Notes: generated by a model not told the origin, from the sequence alone. A stretch of 64,000 bases of DNA from Candidatus Dojkabacteria bacterium (GCA_030583685.1 CP129470.1:479007-543006); one strand, 5' to 3'; positions 7,061 to 54,352 are shown, counted from the first letter of the stretch. Made by a program: numbers and translations.

Positions 7061-7068
7061 TGTATAAT
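7061..7068 (+). promoter_or_regulatory. Extended -10 box TGTATAAT, 8 nt upstream of the ftsK ATG (leaderless-type promoter).
   Basis: TGnTATAAT consensus. The same arrangement recurs at the ligase, uvrA, uvrB, uvrC, aspS, murB and PEGA gene starts. Confidence 0.45.
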
Positions 7069-15915: not shown

Positions 15916-18900
15916 CTATTTTTCAATCGTAACCGAGAGTTTTGTTTTCTCTGGGCCAACATCGCCACTGTACGTTGCCGTTTCTGATAGGCCTTGCGTT
16001 ATGGTAAGTTTCGTGAGTAAGGTCGCTTTCTTCAGCTGCTCTTGGTACTTTTCAACAACAGAAGAAAGCGTGGTATCTTCCGTTCCCAGTGACACTGTCA
16101 CGTGCTGGCCAAGTTCTAATTGTGCCTGTTTTCTTGCTGCTTGAATTGCTCTGGTAATTTCTCGCACCAATCCCTGTTCTGCAAGTTCTGGGGTAATTTT
16201 TATATCTAAACCGACTGAATACTGCTGCTCCTGTTTCACTTTGAGCGAATCGGATTCAGTGAGTGACGCAACAAAGCGAGCTGTTTGAACGTTTAGTTCG
16301 TCTGCAATAAGCGTGTTGTAATCAGTTCCAAGATCATTTTCTGATGTATAAGATACAGAGGAAAGAGGCTGTTTGAGAGGAATACCTTGTTCAACCCGAA
16401 TACTTTGCCCAAGTGATACAATTTTTCTTGTCTTCTCCATAGTTTCAAGTAACTTGATTTCCTCTTGAGTGAGTTCAGAAACTGTTGGAAAGTTCTCCAA
16501 ATGAACAGATTCTTTTTGTTCATCTTCTGGGAGTGCTTTTTTCAGCTCTTGGTGGAGGTATTCAGTAATGAAAGGAATGATTGGCGCAAATGCTTTTGTT
16601 ACTAAAAGTAACACCGCAAACAAGGTATTGAGTGCATCTCCATCACCTGAAACAAAACGGTCTCGGGAGCGTCGAATATACCAAGTTGAGATGTCATCAA
16701 TGAGCGGTTTCAACTCGGCAATCGACTTGGGGATGAGATAGGCGTCAAGATTTTTTTGAACTGACAATATCGCCGACGTTGCTCTTGTTAATACCCAGGT
16801 ATCAAGTAATTGTGATGGTTTCCAGGTCTTGTCGTAGGAGAACCCGTGTTGATTCGCGTAAAGGGTGAAGTACTTAAACGTGTTCATAAGTGGCAACAGA
16901 ATCTCCTTTGCTGGGGCACCAATTGCATCTTCGGATACATTCAAATCTTCTCCAATTGGCAAGACGCTTCCCGCGATGTAGAGTCGGAATGAGTCCCCCC
17001 CATGCTTTTCGATTGTTCCGCGTGGGTCTGGATAATTTCCAAGGCTTTTACTCATCTTTCGACCATCAGTTCCATTGATTGTTCCCGTACAGACGACATT
17101 TTTAAACGCATTCGTTCCAAACAATATGGTTGAAACAACGTGCATGACATTAAACCAAGCGCGAGTTTGCCCAACATATTCGGTGATAAAGTCTCCAGGG
17201 AAATTTTGTTCGAATTTTTCCTTATTCTCAAAGGGATAGTGGAATTGGGCAAAAGGCATCGAAGCAGATTCAAGCCAGCAATCGACCACCTCTGGAACAC
17301 GCTTCATCATTCCTGTCTCACATTCTGAGCAAGAGTAGGTGTGCTCATCAATATATGGACGATGTAAATTAGTCACTTTTTTACCCGACTTTTCTTCGAT
17401 TTCTGCGATTGACCCAAGGACATCGCGGTGATCACATGCGTCACATTCCCAGATAGGGAGCGGAGTTGCCCAATAGCGTGTTCTCGAAATTCCCCAATCA
17501 GGGAAAGTTTTGATAGCGTCTTCAAATCTTCCGTGCTTAATATGCTCAGGAATCCAGTTGATATTCTCATTGTTTTTGTACAGTTGGTCTTTGACTGCTT
17601 GAATGTTGACATACCAAGAATCCTGCGCTTTGTACACGAGTGGGGTGCTACAGCGATAGCAAACGGGGTAGCTATGTGTGATTCGTTCTTCTTTCCAAAG
17701 AAGCCCTCGTTCTTTGAGAGCAGCAGAAATTGTAGGGTCTGCTTGTTTGAAATAGATGCCCGCATAGTCAGTGACTTCGGGGATAAATTTTCCTTCCTCA
17801 TCGATAGTCTCGTGCATTGAAAGGCCGATGGTTTTTCCAAGTGCCGTATCGTCTTCTCCAAATCCTGGAGCCATGTGGATAACGCCTGTTCCATCAGATG
17901 TACTAACGAAATCGGCAGCATAAATACGAAAATCTTTCTCACCGGCAGGGAAATAGGAGAAAAGTGGCGCATAAGTATTTCCCACAAGCTCCTTTCCCAG
18001 GTAGGTGTCTTCGATTCGATACTCTTTTCCTTCGAGAACCTGTTCAATGAGATCTTCTGCGAGAATGAGATACTCACCGTCAACAAGACACGTTGCATAG
18101 GTTGCTTTTTCGTCAACCACAAGGGCTGCGTTTGCAGGGAGTGTCCATGGCGTTGTGGTCCATGCGAGAACTGACACAGGAGGCTTGGTGATTGAGGGCT
18201 CTCCGTGAGGAATTTGGCGTGGTTCCTGGGACAACACGTCTTTAAGCGTGTTCTTTGTCGGAATATGAATATTGTCCCAGGGGATGTCTTCGGGTTTTAC
18301 CCAATTAAGTTCAGAATCCATATCTCCCTCCGTATCGACGACACGTGGTGTTCCCGAAACCTTTACTTTAAAGTGATGTGTTTTAAAAAGGCGCCCTTCA
18401 AAAATATCTATATTAAAGCCGTAATAGGTGAGTTCCGTAACCTCACAATCAATCTCTTCTTTAACTTCCCGTCTGACGGTGTTTTCAAGATTTTTCTCAT
18501 CAACGTCTTCATATTTTCCGCCAACAATTCCCATGACTTGGGCTCGGCCTTCTTTGATTCTGCGGATCATCAGAATTTCGCCTTTCTCGTTTTCAACGAC
18601 AACACCGGCACCAACTCCGGTTTTATAATAGTTCACAGGGAATTTTACGAAGACAGACGGATCTTCTAGCTCCCGGTACGAATTATCCATGGCAATTTCA
18701 AAGTTCGAGAGAGGCGTTCCACAACGAGTGCAGTATAACGAGACACGCTTTCCTTTATAAACCAATTCCTTTTCGTAAAATTGTTTAAAAACCCAGATAA
18801 CTGATTCCATGTAATTGAGGTCCATGGTTCGATACGGTTTACTCATGTCTACCCAGCGTGCGATACGGTCGATGTACCATTCCCACTCACCTGACACATC

Positions 18901-19290
18901 CGAAACATAGGTTTCACAAGCATCAATAAAGGCTTGTATGCCAACTTTATTTTCAATATCTCGGCGGTTTTTTGTATTAAATTGTCGCTCAACTTTTTCT
19001 TCAACGGGAATACCGTGACAATCCCAACCCCATACTCGTTCTACGCGTTTGCCACGCATCGTGTGATAGCGAGGAACAATATCTTTTAACACACTGGCGA
19101 GTAGGTGGCCATAATGGGGAAGTCCCGTCACAAAAGGAGGTCCGTCATAAAAAACAAAATGATTTTTTTCAGGTCGTTGCTCAATTGACTTCTCAAAAAT
19201 TCGATTCTTTTTCCAAGTTTCTAAGATTGGTTGTTCGACATCGTGATAAAACGAGCGAATATTTGGTGGTGAGAAGTGTGTTTTTGCCAT
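15916..19290 (-). CDS. ileS: Isoleucyl-tRNA synthetase with an internal Nudix-like insertion.
   Basis: HIGH motif PHYGHLL. KMSKS. WTTTPWTLPAN CP1 editing-domain signature. 1124 aa. Residues ~220-365 form an extra Nudix-like domain. Confidence 0.95.
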   Translation of the reverse strand: MAKTHFSPPNIRSFYHDVEQPILETWKKNRIFEKSIEQRPEKNHFVFYDGPPFVTGLPHYGHLLASVLKDIVPRYHTMRGKRVERVWGWDCHGIPVEEKVERQFNTKNRRDIENKVGIQAFIDACETYVSDVSGEWEWYIDRIARWVDMSKPYRTMDLNYMESVIWVFKQFYEKELVYKGKRVSLYCTRCGTPLSNFEIAMDNSYRELEDPSVFVKFPVNYYKTGVGAGVVVENEKGEILMIRRIKEGRAQVMGIVGGKYEDVDEKNLENTVRREVKEEIDCEVTELTYYGFNIDIFEGRLFKTHHFKVKVSGTPRVVDTEGDMDSELNWVKPEDIPWDNIHIPTKNTLKDVLSQEPRQIPHGEPSITKPPVSVLAWTTTPWTLPANAALVVDEKATYATCLVDGEYLILAEDLIEQVLEGKEYRIEDTYLGKELVGNTYAPLFSYFPAGEKDFRIYAADFVSTSDGTGVIHMAPGFGEDDTALGKTIGLSMHETIDEEGKFIPEVTDYAGIYFKQADPTISAALKERGLLWKEERITHSYPVCYRCSTPLVYKAQDSWYVNIQAVKDQLYKNNENINWIPEHIKHGRFEDAIKTFPDWGISRTRYWATPLPIWECDACDHRDVLGSIAEIEEKSGKKVTNLHRPYIDEHTYSCSECETGMMKRVPEVVDCWLESASMPFAQFHYPFENKEKFEQNFPGDFITEYVGQTRAWFNVMHVVSTILFGTNAFKNVVCTGTINGTDGRKMSKSLGNYPDPRGTIEKHGGDSFRLYIAGSVLPIGEDLNVSEDAIGAPAKEILLPLMNTFKYFTLYANQHGFSYDKTWKPSQLLDTWVLTRATSAILSVQKNLDAYLIPKSIAELKPLIDDISTWYIRRSRDRFVSGDGDALNTLFAVLLLVTKAFAPIIPFITEYLHQELKKALPEDEQKESVHLENFPTVSELTQEEIKLLETMEKTRKIVSLGQSIRVEQGIPLKQPLSSVSYTSENDLGTDYNTLIADELNVQTARFVASLTESDSLKVKQEQQYSVGLDIKITPELAEQGLVREITRAIQAARKQAQLELGQHVTVSLGTEDTTLSSVVEKYQEQLKKATLLTKLTITQGLSETATYSGDVGPEKTKLSVTIEK

Positions 19291-19343
19291 TGGGGATTAT
19301 AACCTAATTGCGCACATATCGCTAGAATTATGTATAATCAGAT

Positions 19344-21218: not shown

Positions 21219-21938
21219 ATGTCGGCCACTGATTCTCAAGTAAAGAAATTGCAACATGTTGTCGTTATTCCCGATGGCGATAGACGGTGGGCGAAGGCAA
21301 AAGGTCTTCCCCCGTGGGAAGGGCATCGACGTGGCGCAGACAATGTGCAGAATATGCTTGCTGCTTGCAAAGAACGAAATATTCCGTATCTAAGTATGTG
21401 GGGATTTTCCACGGAAAACTGGGATCGCAACCCAGAAGAAGTGTCACAGATGATGGACATGTTTCGCAGCTTCCTCAAAACGAAAAGTAAAATGATTCTC
21501 GATAACAAGATTCGTGTCCGCCATCTCGGTCGAAAGGATCGGTTACCTCAGGATTTGTTAGAGGGCATTCACGAACTAGAGCAAAAAACAGCGCATTTTA
21601 CCGAATGGAATTATCAGGTTCTGTTAGATTATGGTGGGCAAGATGAAATTGTACGTGCTACTAAAAAAGTTGTTGCTGCAGTACAAGCGGGAGAACTTTC
21701 AGCGAACGAGATAACCACTGATTCTTTTTACGACTATTTAGACACCGCAGGAATTCCAAACCCAGATTTTATTATTCGTACCTCAGGTGAACAGCGGCTT
21801 TCTGGCATCTTACCGTATCAAGCAGTATATGCAGAGTTGTTATTTGTTCCAGAAAACTTCCCAGATTTTACGAAAGAAAGAATGTTGCAAGTACTTGATG
21901 AATACGAGCACAGGACCAGAAGGTTTGGAGCGGGCTGA
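21219..21938 (+). CDS. uppS: Undecaprenyl-diphosphate synthase (cis-isoprenyl transferase).
   Basis: HVVVIPDGDRRWAK, SMWGFSTENWDR and RTSGEQRLSG motifs. Confidence 0.9.
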   Translation: MSATDSQVKKLQHVVVIPDGDRRWAKAKGLPPWEGHRRGADNVQNMLAACKERNIPYLSMWGFSTENWDRNPEEVSQMMDMFRSFLKTKSKMILDNKIRVRHLGRKDRLPQDLLEGIHELEQKTAHFTEWNYQVLLDYGGQDEIVRATKKVVAAVQAGELSANEITTDSFYDYLDTAGIPNPDFIIRTSGEQRLSGILPYQAVYAELLFVPENFPDFTKERMLQVLDEYEHRTRRFGAG

Positions 21939-23320: not shown

Positions 23321-24028
23321 ATGAAACTTTTCGTTCGATTGGTCTCGCTCATTCTCGTAACGGTGATGTCGATGACGTATGCGGTGCTTCCTGTCGCAGC
23401 GCAAAGTGTGACGGCATCATTTGTTTTATCACCCCGTACCAGATCGGTTCCGCTGAACGGAACTTTTGATGTGTCAATCACTATGCGGGCAACGGCACCA
23501 AAACAAGTAAGTTATGCACGTGTTGTCTTATTTTTTGATCCAACAAGTCTTGAAATTGCAGACGATTTACAAGCGGGATCGTTATTTTGTAATTATCCTG
23601 TTGATCAATCGAACTATATTGCTGACAATGAACAGGGCCAAATTGTGATTACAGGAATATCAACAGGGCAGGCGGGCTGTTCTTTTCCGGAATTGACGAC
23701 AACGGAAGTGGTCTTTGCAAAGGTCACCTTTAAGGCAAAGAAAAATGGTTCTACGAATGTATCTTTTATGTACAATGGTCGCCTTGAAGATGAGATGTCT
23801 GCAATTACCGACACAAACAGTCCTCCGCAAATGATTATGAGTGCACCACAAAACGGTACATACGCGATTGGCTCTTCTGCAACGACGCCACCACCACCGC
23901 CCGATAACCTTGGTGTTGATCCTCGAATTTTAATTGGGGTTGCTGCAACCACTATGGTGCTTGGTTGGTATTTACTCCCACGCAAAGGAAAATCTCAGCG
24001 AGTTGTTACTTCTACTGAAGCTTGGTAA
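23321..24028 (+). CDS. Secreted cohesin-like domain protein with a Pro-rich linker and C-terminal TM anchor.
   Basis: Signal peptide. Beta-rich cohesin-like region (FDVSITM...VVLFFDPTSLEI). TTPPPPPD linker. C-terminal hydrophobic helix plus a basic tail. Confidence 0.4.
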   Translation: MKLFVRLVSLILVTVMSMTYAVLPVAAQSVTASFVLSPRTRSVPLNGTFDVSITMRATAPKQVSYARVVLFFDPTSLEIADDLQAGSLFCNYPVDQSNYIADNEQGQIVITGISTGQAGCSFPELTTTEVVFAKVTFKAKKNGSTNVSFMYNGRLEDEMSAITDTNSPPQMIMSAPQNGTYAIGSSATTPPPPPDNLGVDPRILIGVAATTMVLGWYLLPRKGKSQRVVTSTEAW

Positions 24029-25520
24029 GGGTGATTGAGAGACCACTGGTCACTGCATTCTGTACTGTGGTTGAGGTGTTGTTGTAGTAAACATCTCCGT
24101 TAGTTGCAATACAAAACGCATTGGTAATAACGGTATCTGTTGCAACAGGAAGTAAGTATGCGTCTAAACTCGCTAGACGAACAGGCATAATATTAACGGC
24201 CCAAGAGTGGGAAACGCTTGGAATGGTGGTGATAATCGAAGATGTTTGTGAGTTTCGTTTGATTTGCGTTCGCACTAAACATTCACCAGTTCCATTTGAA
24301 AGATTGCCGGTGATAATTGTTTGTCCAGTTGGGAGAGCAATTTCTGCGGGTGTTGTAAACATTCTTACCGTAGAGTCGTTAGTTGGTTTAAAGTAGTAGG
24401 AAGTCATCGGCTGTAAACTGGGAAGGGTAAAATGATGAATCCTGCGGGCTGTTGCCTGTGCTGCATCTCGATCGTCAACACGATTTGAGGTGAGCGTGTT
24501 TGGCGTAGTCCCCCAATTTAGGGTGTTGATTATGGTCGCGTTGGTTAGGTACATCACACTCATCGAGGTCGCAGTAATATTCGAAACAGAAGGTGTCATA
24601 AATAGTGCAAAAAACTGCTCTCGGGTGGGGAGTTCATTTCCTCCAGGAAGGGTAGTTGTGGGAGTTATCGACGGTGTGGCTCCGATTGGTCGTAGGCTGA
24701 AATCTTGCCTTCCTGTCGTTGGCGAGGGGGTTGGGGTAATCGTTGTCGGGATAGTCGAGGGAGAACCAAGTAGAACACTATCGACTGTAGCCTGCGTGAG
24801 TGGATTCGCAAAAGAAAGTGAGAGAGGGTTTTGTTCGTGTGTCGCAAGTCTTGCTGTGCCTAAAGAGTTCGGGCCGACGGCAATGAGTGCAATTTCTGTT
24901 GTATCTGTGAGTGGTAGGAATTCTCCTGTGTTTCGTCTTCCCTCAGTTATCGCAATTAGCCAAGTTCCATTATTGGTGACATACGTCGCGAGAGGAGCAG
25001 AACTGGTGAACCCTAACGTGCTAGGGACGTAGGCAAGAATAACTGCATCAGTTGTTTGAGAGGAAATATCTCCATAAAGTGTTTTGGGGTCAACCGCAGG
25101 CTGCGCAATAACCGGAAATGTTGTGAAAGTAGCGGGATCAGTTCCTTCGGCAGGGTAAGTCGTGTCACCGGAAACAATGCGGTAGTAGTAGGTTGTGTTT
25201 GGTTGTAAGTTTGTTATGGTCACGTAATGAGTTTTTCTTGGTTTTGTGGTGTTCTCAAGAGAATCTCTATCGTCGGTGACAACGGTGCCGAGAGAAGGCG
25301 TCGTACCCCAGTGAAGGGCAGTGACTACTGCGTTATCGCCGGTGCTCCACACAATACTTGTACTTGAATCGGTCAGATTTGCGACGGTGACCATTTGTGG
25401 CACAGCGCCACTCGCTTGCGGAGTAAAAATGTTAAACCGTTGTAATGCAAAAAGTAACCCAACAAGTGAGGCTACTCCAAAGAGAAGATAAAGAACAATT
25501 TTCACGCGAGGCCAGTACAT
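24012..25520 (-). CDS. Surface protein with an N-terminal signal anchor and two fibronectin-III (PAP-N-like) repeats.
   Basis: Two repeats carry the pattern LHWGTTP...Y.YR / LNWGTTP...YYFKP. Thr/Pro-rich linkers. Confidence 0.45.
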   Translation of the reverse strand: MYWPRVKIVLYLLFGVASLVGLLFALQRFNIFTPQASGAVPQMVTVANLTDSSTSIVWSTGDNAVVTALHWGTTPSLGTVVTDDRDSLENTTKPRKTHYVTITNLQPNTTYYYRIVSGDTTYPAEGTDPATFTTFPVIAQPAVDPKTLYGDISSQTTDAVILAYVPSTLGFTSSAPLATYVTNNGTWLIAITEGRRNTGEFLPLTDTTEIALIAVGPNSLGTARLATHEQNPLSLSFANPLTQATVDSVLLGSPSTIPTTITPTPSPTTGRQDFSLRPIGATPSITPTTTLPGGNELPTREQFFALFMTPSVSNITATSMSVMYLTNATIINTLNWGTTPNTLTSNRVDDRDAAQATARRIHHFTLPSLQPMTSYYFKPTNDSTVRMFTTPAEIALPTGQTIITGNLSNGTGECLVRTQIKRNSQTSSIITTIPSVSHSWAVNIMPVRLASLDAYLLPVATDTVITNAFCIATNGDVYYNNTSTTVQNAVTSGLSITLTKLQ

Positions 25521-25640: not shown

Positions 25641-27149
25641 ATGAAAGGATATATCCCGCGCTTTGTTGAAGAACGATTAGAACAATCGATTGCTTCGAAT
25701 CTCATTACTATGGTTATTGGGCCTCGACAGGTTGGAAAAACGACGTTGTTGCAGCAAACACAAGAGAAAGTAGAAAAAAAACAAACAGTACAACAGGGGA
25801 GCGGAGGACTATCATTCACAAGAAACATTTTTACGTATGTTCTTGATGATATTCAACTACGCAGTTCATTGAAAAAAGATATCCGTTATATGCAGAAAGA
25901 TATTGAACTGTCCTTAGGTGAAACATTGGAAAAAACAGAACAGCAGGTATACATTTTTATTGACGAAGTCCAAAAAATGCCAGCACTTTTTGACTGGATA
26001 AAACAAGTGTTTGACAGCAATAACGAACACGTAAAATTCATATTGTCTGGTTCTTCAGCGATATCGATTACTTCTGTCGCAAGTGAAACCCTTGCTGGAC
26101 GTGTCGAATATATAAATGTTTACCCCTTTGTGTATAGCGAACTGTTAGAGGCAAAGACGGAAGTTAAACAACACTTTTTCCTTGATTTGATCGCGTTGAT
26201 GGATTCGCTGGCTGGTGGTGCTGACAATGATGGTTCCGTAGATTCGATACTCTCGCAAATGAGTCAAACTGCCATATCGGTGGACGACACGGTGGCTGCG
26301 TTACGTACCTATTTTGAGAAGCAATTTCCGTTATATCACCGACAACTTCTCCCCGTTGTTCGGGAATCAACCGCAAGTGTTGTAGAAACTTTGTTCTATG
26401 GTGGCTTGCCTCGAGTTATCACGACTCCTGTGCAAGAACGAGTTCGTATGATTAAAAACTATATTGATGTGTACATGGAGAAGGAGATTGGAACAATGGC
26501 ACGCAACCTTGACCTCGAGTTGTTTGGACTCAGTTTACAATCTTTTGCACAACAAAACGGTTCTACCTTGAATATCAATCAGGTCTCAAAAGATGTGGGT
26601 ATTTCTCGTCCGAGTTTGTATAAGTACTTGGATTTATTGGAAAATACCTATTTGATTAAGAAAGTGTATCCTTATGCTTCAGGCGGTATTGCCGAGGAAG
26701 CAACAAAGAGTGTCGTTATGTATTACTTAGATACCGGAATCTTGAACAACTTGTCGTATGTGACATCGATGCAGGAAATGTTGCGTCCAGATGTCTATTC
26801 GAGAACGGTTGGTTCGTGGGTGCTCAGCACGATTTTGTCAGGGTTTAGCTCGTTAGTTTATGTTCCGCAAATAACTTATTGGCAAAACTATTCTGGTCAT
26901 CGAATGGATATCGTCTTCGAACGAGGGGCTGTTACTTTTGGAATACTCTTTTCTCGGCCAAAAGATCCTCGTCGCTACCAAGCAACACTTGAAAAATTTG
27001 CTGAGGCATCTTCAAAAGATGTTGTTGTGGTCTTTTTACCGTTTTTTGATTCAGTTGGGATGTCACTTGCGTATAAGGCGGAAGAAATACATATTGAGTC
27101 AGGAAAGCGGGTGTTTACGGTAGAGGTACCGCTGCAATTCCTAGGGTAA
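25641..27149 (+). CDS. AAA+ ATPase of the COG1373 type (N-terminal P-loop plus C-terminal DUF4143).
   Basis: Walker A GPRQVGKTTLL. Walker B IFIDEVQ. Typical COG1373 length of 502 aa. Confidence 0.75.
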   Translation: MKGYIPRFVEERLEQSIASNLITMVIGPRQVGKTTLLQQTQEKVEKKQTVQQGSGGLSFTRNIFTYVLDDIQLRSSLKKDIRYMQKDIELSLGETLEKTEQQVYIFIDEVQKMPALFDWIKQVFDSNNEHVKFILSGSSAISITSVASETLAGRVEYINVYPFVYSELLEAKTEVKQHFFLDLIALMDSLAGGADNDGSVDSILSQMSQTAISVDDTVAALRTYFEKQFPLYHRQLLPVVRESTASVVETLFYGGLPRVITTPVQERVRMIKNYIDVYMEKEIGTMARNLDLELFGLSLQSFAQQNGSTLNINQVSKDVGISRPSLYKYLDLLENTYLIKKVYPYASGGIAEEATKSVVMYYLDTGILNNLSYVTSMQEMLRPDVYSRTVGSWVLSTILSGFSSLVYVPQITYWQNYSGHRMDIVFERGAVTFGILFSRPKDPRRYQATLEKFAEASSKDVVVVFLPFFDSVGMSLAYKAEEIHIESGKRVFTVEVPLQFLG

Positions 27150-27633
27150 ATACCCATCCAAGTGAAGCAATAGCGCCAAGAAGTAACCCTGCGATAACAT
27201 CAGCAATATAATGAACGCCAACGGCAGGCCTGTTAATCGCATTGAGAATTCCGAAAGTAACTAATACTGTTTCCCAAGGGAAGACGAAGAAAAATGCACT
27301 TGTAATTGCAAACCCCGAGGTGAATGCATGTGAAGAGGGAAAAGAAAATCCTGGCTGTTCACCTGCAGTTTGTGGTCTATGTCGCTGGAAGATCTTTTTG
27401 ATGCCGAGTTCATGGTAGAAGACCCAAAAAAGGGAGTAGGCTGCAAAAAAGAAAGGAGCTGGGTTGCCACCAAAATAGTAGAAGGCGAGAAAGAGTGGGA
27501 GTGCCGGTCCGTCCGAAAGAATTTTGACGGCTTTACTCGCTACCCTGAGCAGGGTATACTTTTGAACAGTCGTGTACAGATGCGCTGTATATCTAACATC
27601 GTAACTATGAACCTGCTCATAAAACTTTATCAT
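27115..27633 (-). CDS. PAP2-family lipid phosphate phosphatase.
   Basis: The three PAP2 motifs: KKIFQRHRP, PSSHA and NRPAVGVHYIADV. Multi-TM. The start was placed at MIKFYEQ; the longer ORF overlaps the UbiA gene. Confidence 0.7.
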   Translation of the reverse strand: MIKFYEQVHSYDVRYTAHLYTTVQKYTLLRVASKAVKILSDGPALPLFLAFYYFGGNPAPFFFAAYSLFWVFYHELGIKKIFQRHRPQTAGEQPGFSFPSSHAFTSGFAITSAFFFVFPWETVLVTFGILNAINRPAVGVHYIADVIAGLLLGAIASLGWVFTLGIAAVPLP

Positions 27634-28482
27634 ATAGCTCAGCAACTTCGGTGGTATCAATGGTACAAGGCGTTTTATACCTTCTTTGCGTTGTTGTGGA
27701 TTCCACATAGTGCCTATACAGCCGTTAGTTTAGTCTTTGTTGCGGCAGTAATTTTCATTATAGCGAGTAGTATAGTGTACATCATTAATGATATTTACGA
27801 TATAGAGCGAGATTCGCTGCATCCAACCAAAAAACAAAGGCCCCTTGCTGCAGGAAAAATTACTTTGTTTGAGGCGTATTCATTATTATTGATTCTGTCA
27901 GGGACATTGCTATTGGCAATGGGCGCAGTGAATAATACCTGGCTCGCAGTAATAATTTTGGTATATCTGTTCGTAAATATTCTGTACACCTTTGGGCTAA
28001 AACATTTGCCGTATATCGACATTATCACGATTGGGATGCTTGCTGGATTGCGTGTTATCGCAGGCTTTGTTGTGCTTGGACTTCCCGTTGCGTGGTATTT
28101 TGTTATGGTTATTGTGACGTTAGTATTGTTTGTGATGTCAGTACAACGATTGGCTGAAATAAGTATGAATCTTGTGGGAACTCGTCCCGTACTTCGTGTC
28201 TATAATCCGAAAGTATTGAAGTTGCTCATGACAGTTTTTATGATGATATCGGTAATTTTGTACTATTTCGCTATGGCAATGGTTGCTATCCCTCTTGTGT
28301 ATACTGACGTCTTGTACTTTCTTGTGCTCTTTTCGGTGCACCAGTTTATGATGTTTTCTCACACAAAAGTCAATAAAATTGATAATGGGTTTAAAATCTT
28401 TGTTGAGAATCGAACGACACTTGTATTATCACTGCTGTTTGCTCTTGTTATGATTGTTTCTCTGGTGTGGTTTCTTCGCTAG
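27607..28482 (+). CDS. UbiA-family prenyltransferase (DPPR-synthase-like).
   Basis: NDIYDIERD first Asp-rich motif (NDxxDxxxD). 8-9 TM helices. The start was placed at MNLLIKL. Confidence 0.7.
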   Translation: MNLLIKLYHIAQQLRWYQWYKAFYTFFALLWIPHSAYTAVSLVFVAAVIFIIASSIVYIINDIYDIERDSLHPTKKQRPLAAGKITLFEAYSLLLILSGTLLLAMGAVNNTWLAVIILVYLFVNILYTFGLKHLPYIDIITIGMLAGLRVIAGFVVLGLPVAWYFVMVIVTLVLFVMSVQRLAEISMNLVGTRPVLRVYNPKVLKLLMTVFMMISVILYYFAMAMVAIPLVYTDVLYFLVLFSVHQFMMFSHTKVNKIDNGFKIFVENRTTLVLSLLFALVMIVSLVWFLR

Positions 28483-29113
28483 TGAGATGATACTGATTCA
28501 AAATATTGTTGGGGTCTTTCATTTGGTGATGATTGGCGAGATGCTGTCCAACAAGCACGAGAATTCTATTAGCACGTCTCCATAAATCAACGGGAAGTTT
28601 TGCTCGCAGGGCAAACTCTGTTTCCTCCGGAGTTGCTGTCTGCACATAGTTGAGGTGGTTCATGATTCGGTGGACATGAGTATCAACACAAATCGCTGGC
28701 TCTTCACCGACAACTGATACCTGAAGGTTCGCAGTTTTTCGCCCAACACCCGGAAGTTTTACTAATTCATCGATAGTCTCGGGAACAATGTCTCGGAGCT
28801 CAGTATGAACAATAGTTCCTAGTTGGATGAGATGTTTCGCTTTTGTTTTGTAAAATCCAATGGGATGGAGTAATGGTTCGAGTTCCGGCTGTTTTATTTC
28901 CATAAAATCTTTTGGTGTTTTTGCTCGTTCCCAGAGTGCGGGAAGTTTTGTGATGGTCAGAGAGTCCTTTGTTCTTGCAGAAAGGATGGTCGATACAAGA
29001 GTAAAAAAGGGTGATTTTGTCCAAGCATAGGTATGCTCAACCAAGGTTGGGGGAAATCCTTTGACAGCTTCTTCGAATATGTCAAAGAGTTCGTAAATGG
29101 TGACTCGCTGCAT
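28448..29113 (-). CDS. nth: Endonuclease III-like HhH-GPD DNA glycosylase, lacking the C-terminal 4Fe-4S Cys cluster.
   Basis: HhH LVKLPGVGRKTANL with catalytic Lys. VDTHV catalytic Asp. No CX6CX2CX5C at the C-terminus. Confidence 0.75.
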   Translation of the reverse strand: MQRVTIYELFDIFEEAVKGFPPTLVEHTYAWTKSPFFTLVSTILSARTKDSLTITKLPALWERAKTPKDFMEIKQPELEPLLHPIGFYKTKAKHLIQLGTIVHTELRDIVPETIDELVKLPGVGRKTANLQVSVVGEEPAICVDTHVHRIMNHLNYVQTATPEETEFALRAKLPVDLWRRANRILVLVGQHLANHHQMKDPNNILNQYHLTSEETTPEKQS

Positions 29114-29131
29114 AGTTAAATTATACCTGAT

Positions 29132-29941
29132 ATGCTAGGCTACGGTATGAATAAGTTCGGGTTATATGGTGCAGCCTTAAAACCAGAAAGAATTATTGTT
29201 GCACACGTTGCATTCTTTGTTGCAATTATTGCGTATTGGCCGGGAAGTAATGGAGTATTAGGAACCCTCTACGGAGTTGCGTTGTTTGTACTTTTTTATG
29301 GTGCAGTATATTTAATGAATGACATTCTCGATTACCGAGAGGACAAGAAAGATCCACATAATAGAAAGCGAGTTCTTGCATCAGGATTGGTTACACGAAG
29401 AGAAGCAGTTTTGGTAGCCGCTCTTCTTCTGCTGCTGACAGCGGGAGGAATGTTTTTTTATGATATTTCTCTGTTTGGATTGGCAATTCTTCTTTGGGGA
29501 ATGAATGTTTTGTATGCACGTTGGTTGAAGGCAATCCCATATCTTGATTTGTTCTTTATTGCATGGACTCAAGCGATAAAGTTCTTAGCGGGAGTTGTGG
29601 TAGTCGGGGTCAGTATCGTGATTCTTTTTGACGTATGGCCATTATTTCTTGCGGTATATTGCGCAGGGTTGCTCATGCATGTTGAGAAGCAGATGGGGCG
29701 ATTACAGGAAGGTCGTGAACGAAAGTTCCGGTTTGGTCATTACACGATGCGCGGCTTGAATAGAATTCGTTGGTTTGCGATTCTTGGTGGTTTTGGATTA
29801 ACCTTCAGCATGTGGGGCCATCCATTCTTCTTTCTCATGCTTCTCGCAATGGGTATTGTGACAACGTTACGGTTTTTATTCCCTGGTGAAAAAACTATGT
29901 CTGCGGTTCATGCCCTTGAAAAAATTTTCCAACCGAGGTAA
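29132..29941 (+). CDS. Second UbiA-family prenyltransferase paralog.
   Basis: LMNDILDYREDK (NDxxDxxxD). Polytopic membrane protein, 269 aa. Confidence 0.65.
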   Translation: MLGYGMNKFGLYGAALKPERIIVAHVAFFVAIIAYWPGSNGVLGTLYGVALFVLFYGAVYLMNDILDYREDKKDPHNRKRVLASGLVTRREAVLVAALLLLLTAGGMFFYDISLFGLAILLWGMNVLYARWLKAIPYLDLFFIAWTQAIKFLAGVVVVGVSIVILFDVWPLFLAVYCAGLLMHVEKQMGRLQEGRERKFRFGHYTMRGLNRIRWFAILGGFGLTFSMWGHPFFFLMLLAMGIVTTLRFLFPGEKTMSAVHALEKIFQPR

Positions 29942-30649
29942 TTAAAACCCATCGGCGATTCCGCAATCTTCGTTGAAGGTGAGGTCTTGCTGTTGTTGAT
30001 AGTCTGCAATTGGCTTTAATTCAAACGTGTCGTAGCGATCTTTGTGTTGTTTTAGTTCTTCTGCTGTTGCCCAGAAGTTCCTTTGATAAGGGGTTTCTTC
30101 AATCAGGTTGCCAGATATTCCCGTAACTAAGTGACGATAAAAGATAACATCTTGAACGGTTTCTTCTTCACGGGTACGTATTTTTCGGAAGATTGAAAGG
30201 AGCTTCACTGACGTAGCGGTTAATCCAGATTCTTCATACAGCTCGCGAAGTGAGGCATCTACAAGTGTTTCTCCAAAGCGAATTTTTCCTGTAATAAGTC
30301 CGATTTTTCCAAAATAGGGATGACGAAGGCGTTTGTTAACGAGATATTCATCTTTTCCGTCTTCACGTGTTCGTGCAACGACCAAAAGTACAGAACTTTT
30401 GGGTTGTTTCTCAACGATGTCAACGGTATCGTCCATGAGGTTTCCGTAATCTTTTCCTTGATCGGAAAGTGAATATCCTGCGTCTGACTTGTTAATAAAG
30501 CCAATATCAAGAAGCTTCTGTAAGTGATAATTCATGTGCTCGCTTTCAAGACCTGCAATCAATAACTGATTGAAGCGAAGAGGTTCACTCGCGACGATCA
30601 ATTTTTTGAGAAGGTCTTTTTGATAATAATGTAGTTTTATTGTTTCCAT
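29942..30649 (-). CDS. Nudix hydrolase with an N-terminal winged-helix domain.
   Basis: Perfect Nudix box GKIRFGETLVDASLRELYEESGL (Gx5Ex7REUxEExGU). N-terminal HTH-like ~70 aa. Confidence 0.75.
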   Translation of the reverse strand: METIKLHYYQKDLLKKLIVASEPLRFNQLLIAGLESEHMNYHLQKLLDIGFINKSDAGYSLSDQGKDYGNLMDDTVDIVEKQPKSSVLLVVARTREDGKDEYLVNKRLRHPYFGKIGLITGKIRFGETLVDASLRELYEESGLTATSVKLLSIFRKIRTREEETVQDVIFYRHLVTGISGNLIEETPYQRNFWATAEELKQHKDRYDTFELKPIADYQQQQDLTFNEDCGIADGF

Positions 30650-30762
30650 ACGGTATTGTTACCTATTTACCGCAGAAATCAACTGAAAAGAATTTTAGTT
30701 GTGAGCATATGCAGAAAAGTGCCTTGTTTGCTCTCAAGGCGCGAAAGCATTATAATTCCCCT

Positions 30763-32565
30763 ATGGAACGAACAATTTCTTCAGGTCTTGCAGCACTCGT
30801 TGGTCAACAAGCGAGAGTGGAAGGCTGGTATCACAATCTACGAGAACTTGGTAAGGTCGGCTTTTTGGTGCTTCGTGATCGAGATGGACTTGTCCAAGTG
30901 GTTATTGACAAGAAAGAGACAATAAAAGAACTAGCAAAACTTCAGCCGGGAACAGTTATTCGAGCTATTGGAACGGTTAAAGAAACAACCGCAACAGATA
31001 TTGGCGTCGAATTGGTTTCTCCTGAAATCGAAGTGCTCGTACCAATTACAGAAGTGAGTCCTGTCTCCTATAACAAGAAATCTCTTGATGTGAATATCGA
31101 TACAGAACTTGATTTTCGGCCGTTAGTGCTGAGAAATCTCAAGAAACAGGCAATATTCAAAGTGCAAGCAAAGATTCTTCAAGCGTTTGCCGATTCCTTA
31201 CGAAATCAAGGATTTATGGAATTTCGTACTCCAATTTTGATGCATGCACCTTCAGAAAGCGGTGCGAGTGTCTTTGAGGTGAATTATTTCGAGGGAAAGG
31301 CATATTTGGCGCAATCTCCGCAGGTGTACAAGCAGATTATGGTTGGCGTATTTGAGCGAGCATTTACCATAACGCCTGTTTTTCGTGCAGAAAAGCACAA
31401 TACGACGCGTCACATTATGGAATTAACGCAAATGGATGCAGAAATGGGATTCATCGAAAGCTATCACGAAATTATGGCAGTTGCTGAAAAGACAATAAGA
31501 GATATTATTGCTACCGTTGTCGCGGAATATGCACAGGTATTTCAAGAATATGGAGTTGCCTTGCCACAAGTACCAGAAAAACCATTTCCAAAAATAAAAG
31601 TAAAGGAAGCACTCGCTGTTATTGAAGCACGAACAGGGAAAAGTGCTGTCAGAGAAGAGTTAGATCTCGACCCGGAGGATGAACGAGAAATGAGTAAATG
31701 GGCCCTTGAAGAGCATGGATCTGACTTCCTTTGGGTTATCAACTTTAAAGCAAATAAGAATTTTTACACCTGGGATGATCCACAAAATGCTGATGAATCA
31801 CTCTGTTTTGATTTAGAGTTCCGCGGATTAGAAATGCTTTCGGGAACGCATCGTATTCACTTGCATGAGCAACTTCTTGAGCGGTTTAAGAAGGAAGGGT
31901 TGACAGAAGAACATTATGAGCATTATTTTCAAGCATTTAAGTACGGCATGCCTTCTGAAGGTGGGTTTTCTTTTGGACTTGAGCGGCTCACGATGAAACT
32001 ATTTGAATTGAAGAATATTCGTGAAGCAACCCTCTTCCCCGCAGACTTAAAGAGAATTGCAGGAGCAAATAGAATTAAAGAAAAAGTCGTTGGCGAGCAT
32101 GCCGTTGTCGAGAAAATTAAGAAATTGTTGGACTCACGCGCGATTAAGTATCACTTTGAGGAACATGAAGCGGTACGAACCAGTGAAGAAGCCGCCGCAT
32201 TACGGGGGACTTCGCTTTCTAGCGGTGCTAAAGCGTTGATTCTTGTGGGAAAAAAGACAGGAAATCACGCTATGGTGGTAATTCCAGGCGATAAGAAACT
32301 TGCGCTTTCGGCGGTAACAGAAAAAATTGGCGAAAAAATGGAATTTGAAAAACCAGAGACAATTCTCGCTGAGTATGGGATTAAAGTGGGGGGAGTCCCT
32401 CCTTTTGGGAATCTTCTCGGAATGAGACTGTTAATGGATACCGGTGTTGCTAAAAATTCACAGATTTCCTTTAATGCAGGCAAGCAAACGTGTTCCATTC
32501 ACATGTCAGGGAAAGATTTAGCAGAAGTAACTGACGCAGAAGTTGGGGAATTTGCACAAAGGTAG
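30763..32565 (+). CDS. aspS: Archaeal-type class IIb Asp(Asn)-tRNA synthetase fused to a C-terminal ProX/YbaK-like deacylase domain.
   Basis: OB anticodon-binding N-terminus. Motif-2 region FRTPIL...LAQSPQVYKQ. Motif 3 GGFSFGLERLTM...FP. C-terminal ~170 aa with GAKALILVG...GGVPPFG (YbaK/ProX). TATAAT at 30751-30756 precedes the ATG at 30763. Confidence 0.8.
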   Translation: MERTISSGLAALVGQQARVEGWYHNLRELGKVGFLVLRDRDGLVQVVIDKKETIKELAKLQPGTVIRAIGTVKETTATDIGVELVSPEIEVLVPITEVSPVSYNKKSLDVNIDTELDFRPLVLRNLKKQAIFKVQAKILQAFADSLRNQGFMEFRTPILMHAPSESGASVFEVNYFEGKAYLAQSPQVYKQIMVGVFERAFTITPVFRAEKHNTTRHIMELTQMDAEMGFIESYHEIMAVAEKTIRDIIATVVAEYAQVFQEYGVALPQVPEKPFPKIKVKEALAVIEARTGKSAVREELDLDPEDEREMSKWALEEHGSDFLWVINFKANKNFYTWDDPQNADESLCFDLEFRGLEMLSGTHRIHLHEQLLERFKKEGLTEEHYEHYFQAFKYGMPSEGGFSFGLERLTMKLFELKNIREATLFPADLKRIAGANRIKEKVVGEHAVVEKIKKLLDSRAIKYHFEEHEAVRTSEEAAALRGTSLSSGAKALILVGKKTGNHAMVVIPGDKKLALSAVTEKIGEKMEFEKPETILAEYGIKVGGVPPFGNLLGMRLLMDTGVAKNSQISFNAGKQTCSIHMSGKDLAEVTDAEVGEFAQR

Positions 32566-34799: not shown

Positions 34800-35633
34800 G
34801 TGAAAGCAAATAAAACAAAAATCATTGTCCGTTTCGTCGGAACTTTTTTTTCAATCGTTACAGTCGTCTCGGTAGGGCTGCTACTTCTTGTTCCAGAACT
34901 GAGATTTTGGGAGCCTGAGTCTGAAGCTGCGGCGAATTGTGAATATGGATCATATCCTGCGGGAACTTGTCCAAATACTGTTTGTCCTGACGCACGATAT
35001 TGTGCGATGAACCCAGTTGTTGGCGCTGATTCTGTAAAATGTTTAAGTATATCTACATCTGACATTATCTACGACTGTTGCCCTGCAGGAAAGATACTCA
35101 ATAGAGCAGGAACACTTTGCGTTACTCCTCCAGTAAATAATGTTTGTCAAACCTATGGTATTCATCCTGAGAATACTTGTACGAACACGCGTTGTCCTGT
35201 TGGAAGACATTGTGCGAGTAACCCTGTTGTGGGAGCGGACGCAGTCAAATGTCTTTCTTTGCCCTTGAGTGGTGATTTCATTTATGACTGTTGTCCAGAA
35301 GGAATGGTATTAAATGAAGCGAGAACCCAGTGCATAAGCCCAACGGCAACAACAACGAGTACCCCTTCTGTAACAACAACCGCAACAACGGTGGGAACGC
35401 CTTCCGGGACCGGTAATGTCACCTTTACTGCTTCTGCAACTGCAACTGCAGTTTTAACAACAATCCCTCCTGTTACAACCGGTTCACAAACAGCGACACA
35501 CGTTCCAGCAGATACCGGTTTTAGGGAAGACATTCTTCTTTACCTCGGAGGTGTTTTATACGGCGTCGGCGTACTTGCGTTCATTTATGCCAGAACAATG
35601 ACTCGCAAAGTGGGAAGTCAGCCCGCTGGTTAG
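34800..35633 (+). CDS. Secreted Cys-rich protein with two tandem 8-Cys modules, a Thr-rich linker, and a C-terminal sorting-signal-like anchor.
   Basis: N-terminal signal anchor. Two ~65-aa repeats share the same Cys spacing. C-terminus VPADTG, then a hydrophobic helix, then RTMTRK. Confidence 0.4.
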   Translation: MKANKTKIIVRFVGTFFSIVTVVSVGLLLLVPELRFWEPESEAAANCEYGSYPAGTCPNTVCPDARYCAMNPVVGADSVKCLSISTSDIIYDCCPAGKILNRAGTLCVTPPVNNVCQTYGIHPENTCTNTRCPVGRHCASNPVVGADAVKCLSLPLSGDFIYDCCPEGMVLNEARTQCISPTATTTSTPSVTTTATTVGTPSGTGNVTFTASATATAVLTTIPPVTTGSQTATHVPADTGFREDILLYLGGVLYGVGVLAFIYARTMTRKVGSQPAG

Positions 35634-41680: not shown

Positions 41681-41700
41681 TTTCCTGTATAATACTCCTC

Positions 41701-44997: not shown

Positions 44998-45014
44998 TTG
45001 CTATAATTCCTTTA

Positions 45015-50863: not shown

Positions 50864-50949
50864 AAGCAGTATGATAGCACAAAAAGGACAGTTCAGGTGA
50901 AGTTTGCGTTACTTTGTGCTATAATACACCTGTCTCGACCACACTTTCG

Positions 50950-52784: not shown

Positions 52785-53993
52785 TTACTGGTATTTACTT
52801 GATTTCTTACTTTTAACCAATAATCCACTTATTACGATATATCCAAACGAGAGAAGAGCAGGTAGCCAAAACGCGTCAAAAACGGTAGTATTGTCTGCTA
52901 AAACTCCAAAGGAATAGGCAACAGGAACATACCAGATATTCTTGGCAAAACTAAGAATTGAGGTTGTTGTTGCACGATATTTACTTTCAATTCCGTGCTG
53001 CCAATCGGTATTAACCGCTATTTCCCCATAGGCGTGAATTATCCTCATAAAGAGCAGTGCAATGACAACAATACTCAGGGAGTGAGTTATCATGAGCAGT
53101 ATTCCACCAAGCATCGCGAAGGTGAGCTTTTGATACACAAGTACCGTAACTGGCTTCTTTTCTGCATACTGAACGCCGATTAAGAATGAAAGCATTTCAA
53201 AAAATGCAAAAATTCCAATAATGGTGAAAGAAAGACCTAACTCTTTTAATGTAATGAGAGCAAATTCTGAGACTAAGGTGTATGCGATAACAGTTGTCAG
53301 AGAAAAGAGTGCAATTGTTCTCAGGTGGGTATGCGTTGCTATTTTTTTGACTAATTTCAGTACATCGAAAGCGAGTAATTCCTGTTCTGAACTCGCTTGT
53401 GAGCTGCTTGCTCGTGGCAGTAAAAGCGCAAAGTAAACGGCAATTGTTGCGCTAACAACTGATGAAAACATCACTAAAACCATATTCGCATCTGCAACAA
53501 ATCCTGCAATGAGAACACCAACACCAAGCCCTATCTCTCTGCTCGAGGTAGCAAGAGACAGAACTTTTTGGAAATAATTTTGTTGTTGTTTTTCTTTCAG
53601 ATCGTCATAGATTAACGCCTCTAATGCACCTGACAAAAATGCGTCATGAATTCCCCAGAAAAGCATACCGATGACAAAACCAGTAAAATTCTGAAAAAGA
53701 AAGAAACATAAGAGTCCTGCTAAGAACGCTAATTTTCCTGCGATAACCACCACCTTTCTTCCAAATTTGTCTGCCAAAATTCCGCTCGGAATCTCCAATA
53801 GGACGATTGACACAGACCACACTCCCAAAACAATCGAGAGTTGCTTGTAGTCAATACCACTTTCGAGAAAGAAGATATTTTGAATCAACCAGAAGAAATT
53901 GAAATAATAGAAGAATTGAAGCAGGGAGTAAATAACCGAGGTCCTTCGTATTTCAGGAGGGAGAGAGGATAAGACTTTAAATTTTTGCATCAT
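52785..53993 (-). CDS. MFS-family transporter.
   Basis: 12 predicted TM helices. MFS loop motif GILADKFGRK. Confidence 0.75.
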   Translation of the reverse strand: MMQKFKVLSSLPPEIRRTSVIYSLLQFFYYFNFFWLIQNIFFLESGIDYKQLSIVLGVWSVSIVLLEIPSGILADKFGRKVVVIAGKLAFLAGLLCFFLFQNFTGFVIGMLFWGIHDAFLSGALEALIYDDLKEKQQQNYFQKVLSLATSSREIGLGVGVLIAGFVADANMVLVMFSSVVSATIAVYFALLLPRASSSQASSEQELLAFDVLKLVKKIATHTHLRTIALFSLTTVIAYTLVSEFALITLKELGLSFTIIGIFAFFEMLSFLIGVQYAEKKPVTVLVYQKLTFAMLGGILLMITHSLSIVVIALLFMRIIHAYGEIAVNTDWQHGIESKYRATTTSILSFAKNIWYVPVAYSFGVLADNTTVFDAFWLPALLSFGYIVISGLLVKSKKSSKYQ

Positions 53994-54352
53994 AGCGTAC
54001 TAAACCACTTTTGATAGTGAAAGAAAAGTCTTTGGACGTGGCGGTTTAAGTCAATAATAAGGTTATAGAAAAGAAAGGTGATGGTGGCTACTAGGAGAAA
54101 AAACGGTATTTGCGATACTTTTGTCATAGAAATGGAGATCATTAAGCCAATGAATACGTATTTTAATAGGAGCAGGATAGTGCGATTTCCGAGAGCTTTT
54201 GTATTACCCTTTTGATAAAGGATGCGACCAATCTTTTTATTACATTGTAATGCTGCAACAACGCAATAACAATAAAACCCTATGATATACAATCCTGATG
54301 GCAATATCGTTGTTGTGACCAGAAGAGTGCCAACAATAAATTTCATCCTCAC
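53990..54352 (-). CDS. Small hydrophobic membrane protein, hypothetical.
   Basis: ORF with 3-4 TM helices. Its stop overlaps the MFS gene start. Confidence 0.3.
   Translation of the reverse strand: MRMKFIVGTLLVTTTILPSGLYIIGFYCYCVVAALQCNKKIGRILYQKGNTKALGNRTILLLLKYVFIGLMISISMTKVSQIPFFLLVATITFLFYNLIIDLNRHVQRLFFHYQKWFSTL

Follow-up and report, generated by a model that had tools for sequence, protein, structure and literature searches.

This study concerns two overlapping genes, one for a PAP2-family phosphatase and one for a UbiA-superfamily prenyltransferase (UbiA1), in a 64,000-nucleotide (nt) stretch of DNA from Candidatus Dojkabacteria bacterium (GCA_030583685.1, CP129470.1:479007-543006). 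The whole stretch is called the window below. The PAP2 gene (27115..27708, minus strand) encodes an integral-membrane protein of 197 amino acids (aa; Pfam PAP2, E=5.4e-10), and UbiA1 (27607..28482, plus strand) encodes a protein of 291 aa (Pfam UbiA, E=3.6e-21) with the motif NDIYDIERD. The two genes are arranged head-to-head, and their coding sequences share 102 nt (27607..27708, both strands), or 34 codons in exact antisense (mirror) register. Beyond UbiA1 lie an endonuclease III-like gene (nth) and a divergent UbiA paralogue, UbiA2 (29132..29941, plus strand; alternative start 29147), with a Pfam UbiA match at E=1.2e-20 and the motif NDILDYRED.

A preliminary description of this DNA had placed the PAP2, UbiA1 and UbiA2 genes at these positions and had noted that the first two diverge. 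We find all three intact, with every motif it quoted. It had also compared PAP2 and UbiA1 with the Rv3807c and Rv3806c proteins of Mycobacterium tuberculosis and suggested a lipid-linked arabinose donor in a lineage not known for such glycans. That description of the lineage, a Dojkabacteria-like branch of the candidate phyla radiation (CPR), is borne out. As shown below, the parallel with Rv3806c holds for UbiA1, whereas arabinose as the product finds no support.

UbiA1, PAP2 and the proposed pathway

Family models place UbiA1 close to the decaprenyl-phosphate phosphoribosyltransferases (DPPRS). Its four best NCBIfam matches were three DPPRS models (117, 108 and 91 bits) and a HAD-UbiA fusion model, PRK08238 (97 bits), while the next best UbiA family reached 37 bits, ubiA 27 and cyoE 22.5. 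When UbiA1 was searched against all PDB sequences, Rv3806c was the sole strong match, both with the single sequence (1.1e-24) and with a profile of its clade (2.7e-34); the two proteins are approximately 31% identical. ApUbiA came second in these searches (7e-6 and 3.5e-5, respectively), and no MenA, UBIAD1, COX10 or further UbiA-fold entry in PDB was matched.

The residues that bind phosphoribosyl pyrophosphate (PRPP) point in the same direction. In the cryo-EM structure of Rv3806c, Mg2+ is contacted by N73 and D77, the ribose by N73 and Q135, the 5'-phosphate by K28, Y70 and Y157, and the pyrophosphate by R22, K87, R90, K143 and Y138 (PMC10994848). These phosphoribose sites are absent from ordinary UbiA enzymes (PMC10994848). 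By alignment, the UbiA1 equivalents are R15, K21, Y58, N61, D65, K75, R78, N124, Y127, K132 and A146, so that nine of the eleven PRPP and Mg2+ contacts are identical. The exceptions are Q135, replaced by N, and Y157, replaced by A (A or T across the clade). N at the Q135 position is the state of every non-mycobacterial homologue aligned, and the Y157 position is F in most others. Throughout the UbiA1 clade the contact residues are invariant or nearly so.

Phylogeny gave a similar answer. A Poisson-distance neighbour-joining tree of 210 columns, a simple method applied with few outgroups, placed the UbiA1 clade, at a bootstrap of 0.90, in one group with Rv3806c and with homologues from Firmicutes, Ignavibacteria, Chloroflexi, Rickettsiales and a DPANN archaeon. 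E. coli UbiA, MenA and CyoE and an actinobacterial MenA stood apart from this group. The earlier placement of UbiA1 in the DPPRS clade is thus upheld by the phylogeny and by the retained PRPP residues, and no clustering with quinone or heme enzymes was seen. On these family tests UbiA1 belongs to the polyprenyl-phosphate phosphoribosyltransferase clade of the Rv3806c type, although it scores below the equivalog cutoffs, and we are fairly confident that it is a polyprenyl-phosphate 5-phosphoribosyltransferase (PPPRS).

The surroundings of more distant homologues are also informative. Relatives of UbiA1 at 30-40% identity occur in gene clusters of the pentofuranose-glycosylation type described in PMC11127046. 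In 20 loci, mostly of Firmicutes, a large multi-transmembrane protein has a HAD phosphatase beside it or fused to it, and proteins with 10-13 transmembrane (TM) segments and no Pfam match flank UbiA1 homologues. In L065, a Rickettsiales metagenome-assembled genome (MAG), the neighbours of the homologue are a GMC oxidoreductase, an NAD-dependent epimerase and an SMR pair. The closest non-CPR relative (39% identity) lies on a Woesearchaeota (DPANN) contig, where its start is overlapped by the gene for a 707-aa protein that weakly matches GT22 (GT-C), and where a PAP2 of 146 aa is encoded 2.3 kb away. These clusters support a family function in providing a lipid-linked pentofuranose donor for extracytoplasmic glycosylation, and by analogy the CPR enzyme may share it.

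The PAP2 protein carries the three catalytic motifs of its superfamily: K104-x6-R111-P112, P124-S-S-H127 and N159-R160-x5-H166-x3-D170. Its Pfam score is 39.6 bits against a cutoff of 27.2, and K104, R111, P112, P124, S125, S126, H127, R160, H166 and D170 are invariant in a fully ungapped alignment of 12 sequences. Variability by codon position fits a coding gene (1.15 at position 3 and 0.35 at position 2). A profile search of 1.84 billion representatives found a narrow clade, with 6 clusters below 1e-30 and 28 below 1e-10, beyond which the matches run on without a gap into generic small PAP2s (50-60 bits). Almost none of the nearest relatives outside the clade are annotated. An AlphaFold2 model (pLDDT 78, eight helices) matched BsPgpB (TM-score 0.58) and LpxE (0.53/0.61), which confirms the PAP2 fold but does not discriminate substrate or orientation. 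The sequence match to BsPgpB (5JKI) is marginal (E=0.018).

The charge distribution of PAP2 suggests how it sits in the membrane. Clear hydrophobic segments begin at residue 67, and the 66 residues before it form a conserved polar stretch with many Lys and Arg. In all 12 family members, 13-19 Lys and Arg residues fall on the N-terminus and the C1-C2 and C3 loops versus 0-3 on the opposite loops. By the positive-inside rule, this makes it probable, though not settled, that the active site faces the cytoplasm. Such an orientation suggests a good fit to a substrate made on the cytoplasmic face. It is unlike that of the characterised PAP2 enzymes that recycle undecaprenyl diphosphate (C55-PP).

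PAP2 is closely tied to UbiA1 within the CPR. It adjoins the PPPRS gene, head-to-head and overlapping, in each of the nine CPR loci whose contigs span it (L001-L007, L015 and L088), and no PAP2 was found within 10 kb of a UbiA1 homologue in 75 non-CPR genome loci. To compare PAP2 with Rv3807c, 80 mycobacterial-type ubiA loci were fetched from metagenomes with a fragment of Rv3806c. In 74 of them a co-directional PAP2 gene immediately preceded ubiA, and a profile built from 70 of these genes was compared with the CPR PAP2s in both directions. Orthology with Rv3807c was ruled out, as the likeness is at superfamily level only. Since the CPR PAP2 and Rv3807c share no more than a superfamily on these profiles, the pairing of PAP2 with PPPRS would have arisen independently, with PAP2 recruited separately. 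The mycobacterial parallel drawn in the preliminary description therefore stands for UbiA1 and for the tight, ancient coupling of a PAP2 to it, but not for kinship of that PAP2 with Rv3807c. Another recurrent adjacency of UbiA-family and PAP2 genes, MenA - DUF4229 - PAP2, occurs in a context unrelated to the CPR pair. It was seen in a Micrococcaceae MAG (L089, 1843-5555), where a PAP2 near the CPR profile follows in the order MenB ... MenA - DUF4229 - PAP2, a menaquinone context.

With these observations in mind, we propose the following pathway. UbiA1 would act as a membrane phosphoribosyltransferase that makes polyprenyl-phospho-ribose 5-phosphate from PRPP. PAP2 would then remove the 5'-phosphate, in a role analogous to that of Rv3807c but independently recruited, to give polyprenyl-phospho-ribofuranose, a lipid-linked pentofuranose donor. 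Once flipped, this donor would serve a GT-C glycosyltransferase that acts on the outer side of the membrane and whose gene would lie in another part of the genome. The substrates, the phosphatase role and cytoplasm-facing orientation of PAP2, and the flippase, transferase and acceptor downstream are all inferred. Taken as a whole, from UbiA1 to an unlinked GT-C enzyme, we consider the chain somewhat likelier to be right than wrong.

Several observations weigh against this proposal. UbiA1 reaches only about half of the NCBIfam equivalog cutoffs (117.3 versus 234 for NF008977 and 108 versus 207 for NF008978), and it is therefore not an equivalog of the characterised enzymes. The CPR PAP2s score 20-31 bits on the Rv3807c-type profile, and in the reverse search mycobacterial-type sequences reached at most 31 bits against at least 50 bits for 150 generic PAP2s. 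The shared 102 nt force the two genes to be inherited together, and their co-conservation is a weaker sign of shared function than it seems. The AlphaFold2 model of PAP2 aligns over its full length with the six-helix BsPgpB, whose active site faces outward. Because of this superposition, the predicted topology is argued from the charge rule alone. The only named NCBIfam families that PAP2 matches, very weakly, are undecaprenyl-diphosphate phosphatases. Finally, the pathway is incomplete as seen in the window and its flanks: no GT-C protein, DprE1/E2-like pair, GtrA, SMR or MATE flippase (MurJ aside) or HAD phosphatase was found in the 64 kb, in the 10 kb that follow on the right or in the CPR relatives' 10-kb flanks.

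This search for partners combined Pfam on 38 window proteins, TM counts on those of no known family and tblastn with 12 proteins, including nine large membrane proteins, encoded beside distant UbiA1 homologues. No protein of no known family with at least eight TM segments was present in the 64 kb, the 10 kb beyond or the CPR flanks, and the 10 kb past the right end hold only mur, ddl and groEL genes. The sole FAD_binding_4 protein in the window is MurB, and no SDR lies beside the pair. The preliminary description had proposed looking for GT-C and DprE1/E2 genes; none came to light in the window and its flanks. An arabinose donor (decaprenyl-phospho-arabinose, DPA) is therefore set aside as unsupported, because the 64 kb contain no DprE1/E2, GT-C or flippase, and polyprenyl-phospho-ribofuranose is the simplest and likeliest product.

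The main rival to the proposed pathway is that PAP2 is a general polyprenyl-diphosphate (C55-PP) phosphatase that supplies or recycles the carrier for peptidoglycan and for UbiA1. The named matches just mentioned are to the undecaprenyl-diphosphatases SepP and PRK11837 (YbjG-type) and to PgpB, and the best fold matches, BsPgpB and LpxE, are known to act on C55-PP. An undecaprenyl-diphosphate (UPP) synthase gene lies 5.2 kb upstream (its stop is at 21938 and that of PAP2 at 27115), mur genes abound in the window alongside MurJ, and no BacA/UppP was seen there. However, the named matches amount to 15-27 bits against cutoffs of 229-261 (SepP 27.1 versus 250, PRK11837 20.2 versus 229, PgpB 15 versus 261). 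The PAP2 clade is also narrow and found only head-to-head with UbiA1, whereas one would expect a wider distribution of a housekeeping UppP. The distribution of Lys and Arg predicts a cytoplasmic active site, although a cytoplasm-facing enzyme acting on C55-PP made de novo is still compatible with it. We regard a general C55-PP phosphatase as a real contender but an unlikely one.

The 102-nt head-to-head overlap

The preliminary description had noticed that the starts of PAP2 and UbiA1 overlap or nearly do so. The overlap is real; its extent is 102 nt instead of 27 nt, as PAP2 starts at 27708 and not at the methionine at 27633. Each gene begins with an ATG that is the CAT codon for His34 of its partner, and His34 is invariant in both alignments. 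The same 102-nt geometry is found on the contigs of eight relatives, L002-L007, L015 and the distant L088, in which UbiA1 and PAP2 are only 31% and 35.5% identical to the window proteins. Two residues that are essential in Rv3806c, corresponding to R15 and K21 of UbiA1, fall inside the shared stretch.

Comparison of the relatives fixes both starts. For UbiA1 the conserved start is the ATG at 27607. L002, L005 and L006 have a stop one codon upstream and no other start before the conserved R-W-x-Q-W-x-K motif, and a 370-codon open reading frame (ORF) from 27370 is peculiar to the window strain. For PAP2, the stop-to-stop ORF measures 204 codons in every close relative, and the ATG at 27708 (codon index 7, the eighth codon) is the sole start codon common to all relatives. 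L006 has no ATG, GTG or TTG in the 52 codons after this ATG, and before it a TTG at ORF codon index 3. In L002 a single TTG is the only alternative, and it is still within the overlap.

Codon usage carries the mark of the double coding. The codons TTA, CTA and TCA, which would place a stop in the antisense frame, number zero in the 34 shared codons of both genes in all seven genomes, while elsewhere they make up 12-48% of Leu and Ser codons. Naive joint probabilities for this avoidance are approximately 1e-5 and 1e-7, figures that are overstated since the genomes are related. Third-position variability in the overlap (0.89) is down from 1.11 in UbiA1-only sequence. We conclude that the overlap is genuine and under selection.

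It could be objected that the long overlap is an annotation artefact, that PAP2 starts internally at Met26 (27633) or further downstream, and that the two genes merely abut. Some gene callers did choose a PAP2 of 172 or 180 aa (P0027, P0033-36). Residues 1-21 are the least conserved of the protein, the conserved prolines of its N-terminus mirror UbiA1 Trp codons, and codon-position variability in the overlap follows the UbiA1 frame (0.68/0.31/0.89 bits). Against this, most called PAP2 homologues have 197 aa, and an internal start would have to be reconciled with the one start codon that all eight relatives share, the lack of downstream starts in L006 and the single TTG, still inside the overlap, in L002, the constant 204-codon ORF and the avoidance of antisense stops over 34 codons in both genes. 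We therefore consider the artefact improbable.

How such genes are expressed may be explained by the start signals of this genome. Shine-Dalgarno-like tetramers precede only three of 33 confident gene starts in the window, two of them approximately 25 nt upstream. By comparison, a TATAAT hexamer (at least 5/6 matches) ends 4-12 nt before the ATG at 14 of the 33 starts versus 4.8% of control ATGs (binomial p~1e-10), most often at -6 to -8. Examples of these -10 boxes lie at 7062-7067, 19333-19338, 29120-29125 (minus strand), 41687-41692, 45001-45006 and 51745-51750. From this pattern, most mRNAs of the genome represented by the window appear to be leaderless or nearly so. Before UbiA1 a TAACAT ends at -8, and the relatives have a conserved TATATT at -19 to -14, within the PAP2 codons for the invariant Y40-T41. 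A sigma-70 scan of 27000-30100 gave 11 sites against 6.4±3.0 expected, a result that by itself says little.

Given a -10 box directly before the ATG and no Shine-Dalgarno sequence in most window genes, PAP2 and UbiA1 are probably also expressed from leaderless or near-leaderless mRNAs, each promoter lying inside the coding sequence of the partner. An overlap of this kind would then be workable, and divergent genes such as nth and UbiA2 could abut, because there would be no 5' untranslated region or ribosome-binding site to fit. The 5' ends of the two mRNAs would be mutually antisense, with complementarity that extends over at least 102 nt.

The overlap has also affected annotation. Gene callers missed PAP2 on the contigs of L001-L004 and UbiA1 in L088 (4236-5102), and some stretch UbiA1 to 367 aa across the PAP2 ORF. 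Since callers drop one partner or extend UbiA1, public protein sets under-represent both families, and half of the module will be systematically lost when metabolism is reconstructed from these genomes. Divergent coding overlaps of such length are seldom met and tend to be written off as misannotation; the present one is a clean and deeply conserved example.

UbiA paralogues and neighbouring genes

UbiA2 belongs to the UbiA family, as the preliminary description had it, but it is not a simple second copy of UbiA1. It lies across nth, starting 650 nt after the UbiA1 stop, and the distance from start to start is 1.5 kb rather than 1.4 kb. Its identity to UbiA1 is 22%, no closer than to PPPRS homologues of other phyla. 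Its top NCBIfam model is DPPRS at 75 bits, short of the cutoff of 234 and 24 bits above the next family at 51, and it matches Rv3806c in PDB at 3.6e-6. The neighbour-joining tree makes it sister to the entire PPPRS group (0.67 support). Orthologues occupy the same position in L003-L007 (37-47% identity) and are absent from L002 and L088. The UbiA2 clade keeps the Mg2+/Asp motif. However, it fails the PRPP-contact comparison, with V, P or I for the Lys28 equivalent and N for that of Lys87; in addition, H84 is replaced by D, and K191/R192 are lost. The donor or acceptor of UbiA2 probably differs from that of PPPRS.

A further reading is that UbiA1, UbiA2 or both are conventional prenyltransferases for quinones, heme O or archaeal-type lipids, which is more plausible for UbiA2 than for UbiA1. 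In its favour, both match only UbiA in Pfam, and UbiA2 lacks two PRPP-binding lysines and matches PRK12884 (51 bits), GGGP transferase (32 bits) and, weakly, DGGGP synthase in PDB. We find it very improbable, as all UbiA1 tests point to the PPPRS clade, UbiA2 itself scores best on a DPPRS model and branches beside PPPRS and not with MenA, UbiA or CyoE, and the 64 kb hold no respiratory or quinone genes.

A third paralogue, UbiA3, survives in the window as a 3' remnant of 118 codons (53993..54346, minus strand), which matches residues 144-261 of an intact protein in L093 at 100% identity. In that strain, which is approximately 99% identical, UbiA3 is a UbiA2-like protein of 261 aa (1503-2288; Pfam UbiA, motif NEVFDVKRD) that adjoins an MFS transporter. 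Nucleotide alignment showed that a deletion of approximately 414 nt removed the 5' part of the gene in the window strain, leaving an ORF of 120 codons (53990-54352, minus strand) without a Pfam match.

The window is a compact run of housekeeping genes (approximately 42% GC) that includes primase, FtsK, MurJ, IleRS, an ATP-dependent ligase, UPP synthase, KsgA, AspRS, UvrABC, Mur ligases, MurA/B and a transfer-messenger RNA (tmRNA). The closest genomes that bear UbiA1 (49-55% identity) are Patescibacteria MAGs: Candidatus Dojkabacteria WS6, 'Patescibacteria group bacterium BroJett019', one MAG labelled Saccharibacteria and isolate SJ560. In all nearest genomes the order is syntenic: ligase - UPPS (the UPP synthase) - x - KsgA - cohesin protein - fn3/PurAcPhos_N protein - AAA_14/DUF4143 ATPase - [PAP2] - UbiA1 - Nth - (UbiA2) - NUDIX - AspRS. 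Because the pair lies inside this conserved housekeeping block, it looks like a core-genome feature of a Dojkabacteria-like CPR clade rather than part of a polysaccharide or variable serotype island.

Two neighbours bear on the pair as context. A cis-prenyltransferase of the undecaprenyl-diphosphate synthase family (21219..21938, plus strand; Pfam Prenyltransf PF01255 on an identical contig), syntenic in all relatives, likely supplies the polyprenyl carrier; it is a context gene and not an operon partner. The nth gene (28448..29113, minus strand) has a Pfam HhH-GPD match and scores 143 bits on TIGR01083 nth, under the cutoff. It is convergent with UbiA1 (35-nt 3' overlap) and head-to-head with UbiA2, with 18 nt between starts. 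Its place beside UbiA1 is kept in the relatives, with an M20 peptidase intervening in L088, and we regard nth as a syntenic bystander. The encoded protein has one cysteine only and lacks the usual C-terminal 4Fe-4S cluster motif. At the other side, the 3' end of PAP2 overlaps the ATPase gene by 35 nt, the same length as the overlap of nth with UbiA1.

Other features of the window were noted in passing. An IleRS-like protein of 1124 aa (15916-19290, minus strand) carries a NUDIX insertion (residues 224-338, E=1e-13) inside the catalytic domain. An aspartyl/asparaginyl-type tRNA synthetase (30640-32565, plus strand) carries a C-terminal YbaK-like tRNA_edit domain, a fusion that is kept in relatives. 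A 993-aa protein (47148-50129, plus strand), which comes after a PEGA-domain protein, combines DUF4012 with a weak NAD-epimerase match. The tmRNA (50949-51374, plus strand; 79 bits) and tRNA-Ser(GCT) (1084-1174, plus strand) are the only RNA genes detected with Rfam and ARAGORN in the window, and Rfam gave no riboswitch or other RNA family near the PAP2/UbiA1 pair. Three membrane-anchored surface proteins have Thr/Pro-rich linkers (23321-24028, plus strand; 24012-25520, minus strand; 34800-35633, plus strand) and carry, respectively, a cohesin domain, two Pur_ac_phosph_N/fn3 modules and two Cys-rich repeats. It is conceivable that these linker-bearing proteins are targets of O-glycosylation.

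Comparison with known systems and significance

The mycobacterial system is the closest in outline. In both, a PRPP-dependent transferase of the UbiA superfamily is encoded beside a small PAP2 membrane phosphatase, and both pairs look like core-genome envelope functions. In contrast to the co-directional mycobacterial genes, those of the CPR diverge and overlap by 102 nt, and their PAP2 differs from Rv3807c in its 66-residue charged N-terminal extension and opposite charge bias. Near the CPR pair there is also no counterpart to the DprE1/E2, AftA-D/Emb and SMR flippase of M. tuberculosis.

A second comparison is with the three-component pentofuranose systems, as in Citrobacter youngae, where ORF15 (PPPRS-PRP) works with a MATE flippase and a GT136 GT-C enzyme (Kelly et al. 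2024, PMC11127046). PPPRS-based systems of this type were reported in 2024 to be widespread (PMC11127046). They use the same type of first enzyme, UbiA1 also matches the HAD-UbiA fusion model, and the 30-40% identical relatives of UbiA1 in Firmicutes and other phyla have their layout of HAD and large membrane protein. Unlike these systems, the CPR phosphatase is a PAP2 protein of its own rather than a HAD domain fused or next to the transferase, the pair has no linked flippase or GT-C, and the setting is a housekeeping synteny block instead of a polysaccharide locus. In view of this work, a pentose donor made by a PAP2 and a UbiA protein, as the preliminary description envisaged, is no longer an exotic idea.

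In the D-arabinofuranosylation of Pseudomonas aeruginosa Pa5196/PA7 pilin, the phosphatase is separate and belongs to another structural family (PMC11127046). That system (PPPRS, DprE1/E2 homologues and TfpW) resembles the CPR pair in having a PPPRS outside Actinobacteria together with a separate phosphatase, and it feeds an extracytoplasmic GT-C. It differs in that the epimerase pair and GT-C are clustered there and absent near the CPR pair. Among phosphatases, BsPgpB (5JKI), Aquifex aeolicus LpxE (6EBU) and E. coli PgpB and YbjG share the fold (TM-score 0.53-0.58) and the three catalytic motifs with PAP2. They differ from it in their marginal sequence similarity, with family cutoffs missed by approximately 200 bits or more, and in orientation, since the positive charge of the CPR PAP2 lies all on the active-site side and predicts the opposite placement in the membrane.

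No paper linking CPR/Patescibacteria to DPPR synthase was found in the literature searched. What is new is a known type of enzyme and pathway, mycobacterial DPPR or three-component, in a Dojkabacteria-like lineage for which it had not come under discussion; what is unusual is the arrangement of the genes. Its distinctive features are the independently recruited PAP2 with its predicted inward orientation, the mirrored overlap of 34 codons and the placement in the core genome. A fuller scenario can be sketched, in which supply of a polyprenyl-phospho-pentofuranose donor is a core part of envelope synthesis in the clade, Patescibacteria possess an undescribed wall polymer or glycoprotein that contains pentofuranose, the overlap with a cytoplasm-facing PAP2 has lasted down to about 31-35% protein identity, and antisense coupling through the perfectly complementary 5' ends adjusts how much of each enzyme is made relative to the other. 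We offer this combination as speculative and, as a whole, rather doubtful.

So far, pentofuranose chemistry is known chiefly from the arabinan of mycobacteria, certain O-antigens and the pili of Pseudomonas, and we know of nothing on pentofuranose envelope sugars in Patescibacteria. The module looks like a core envelope function of the Dojkabacteria-like CPR clade. If UbiA1 and PAP2 do make a lipid-linked donor of ribofuranose or of a pentose derived from it, ultra-small and probably host-dependent bacteria would decorate their envelope with pentofuranose.

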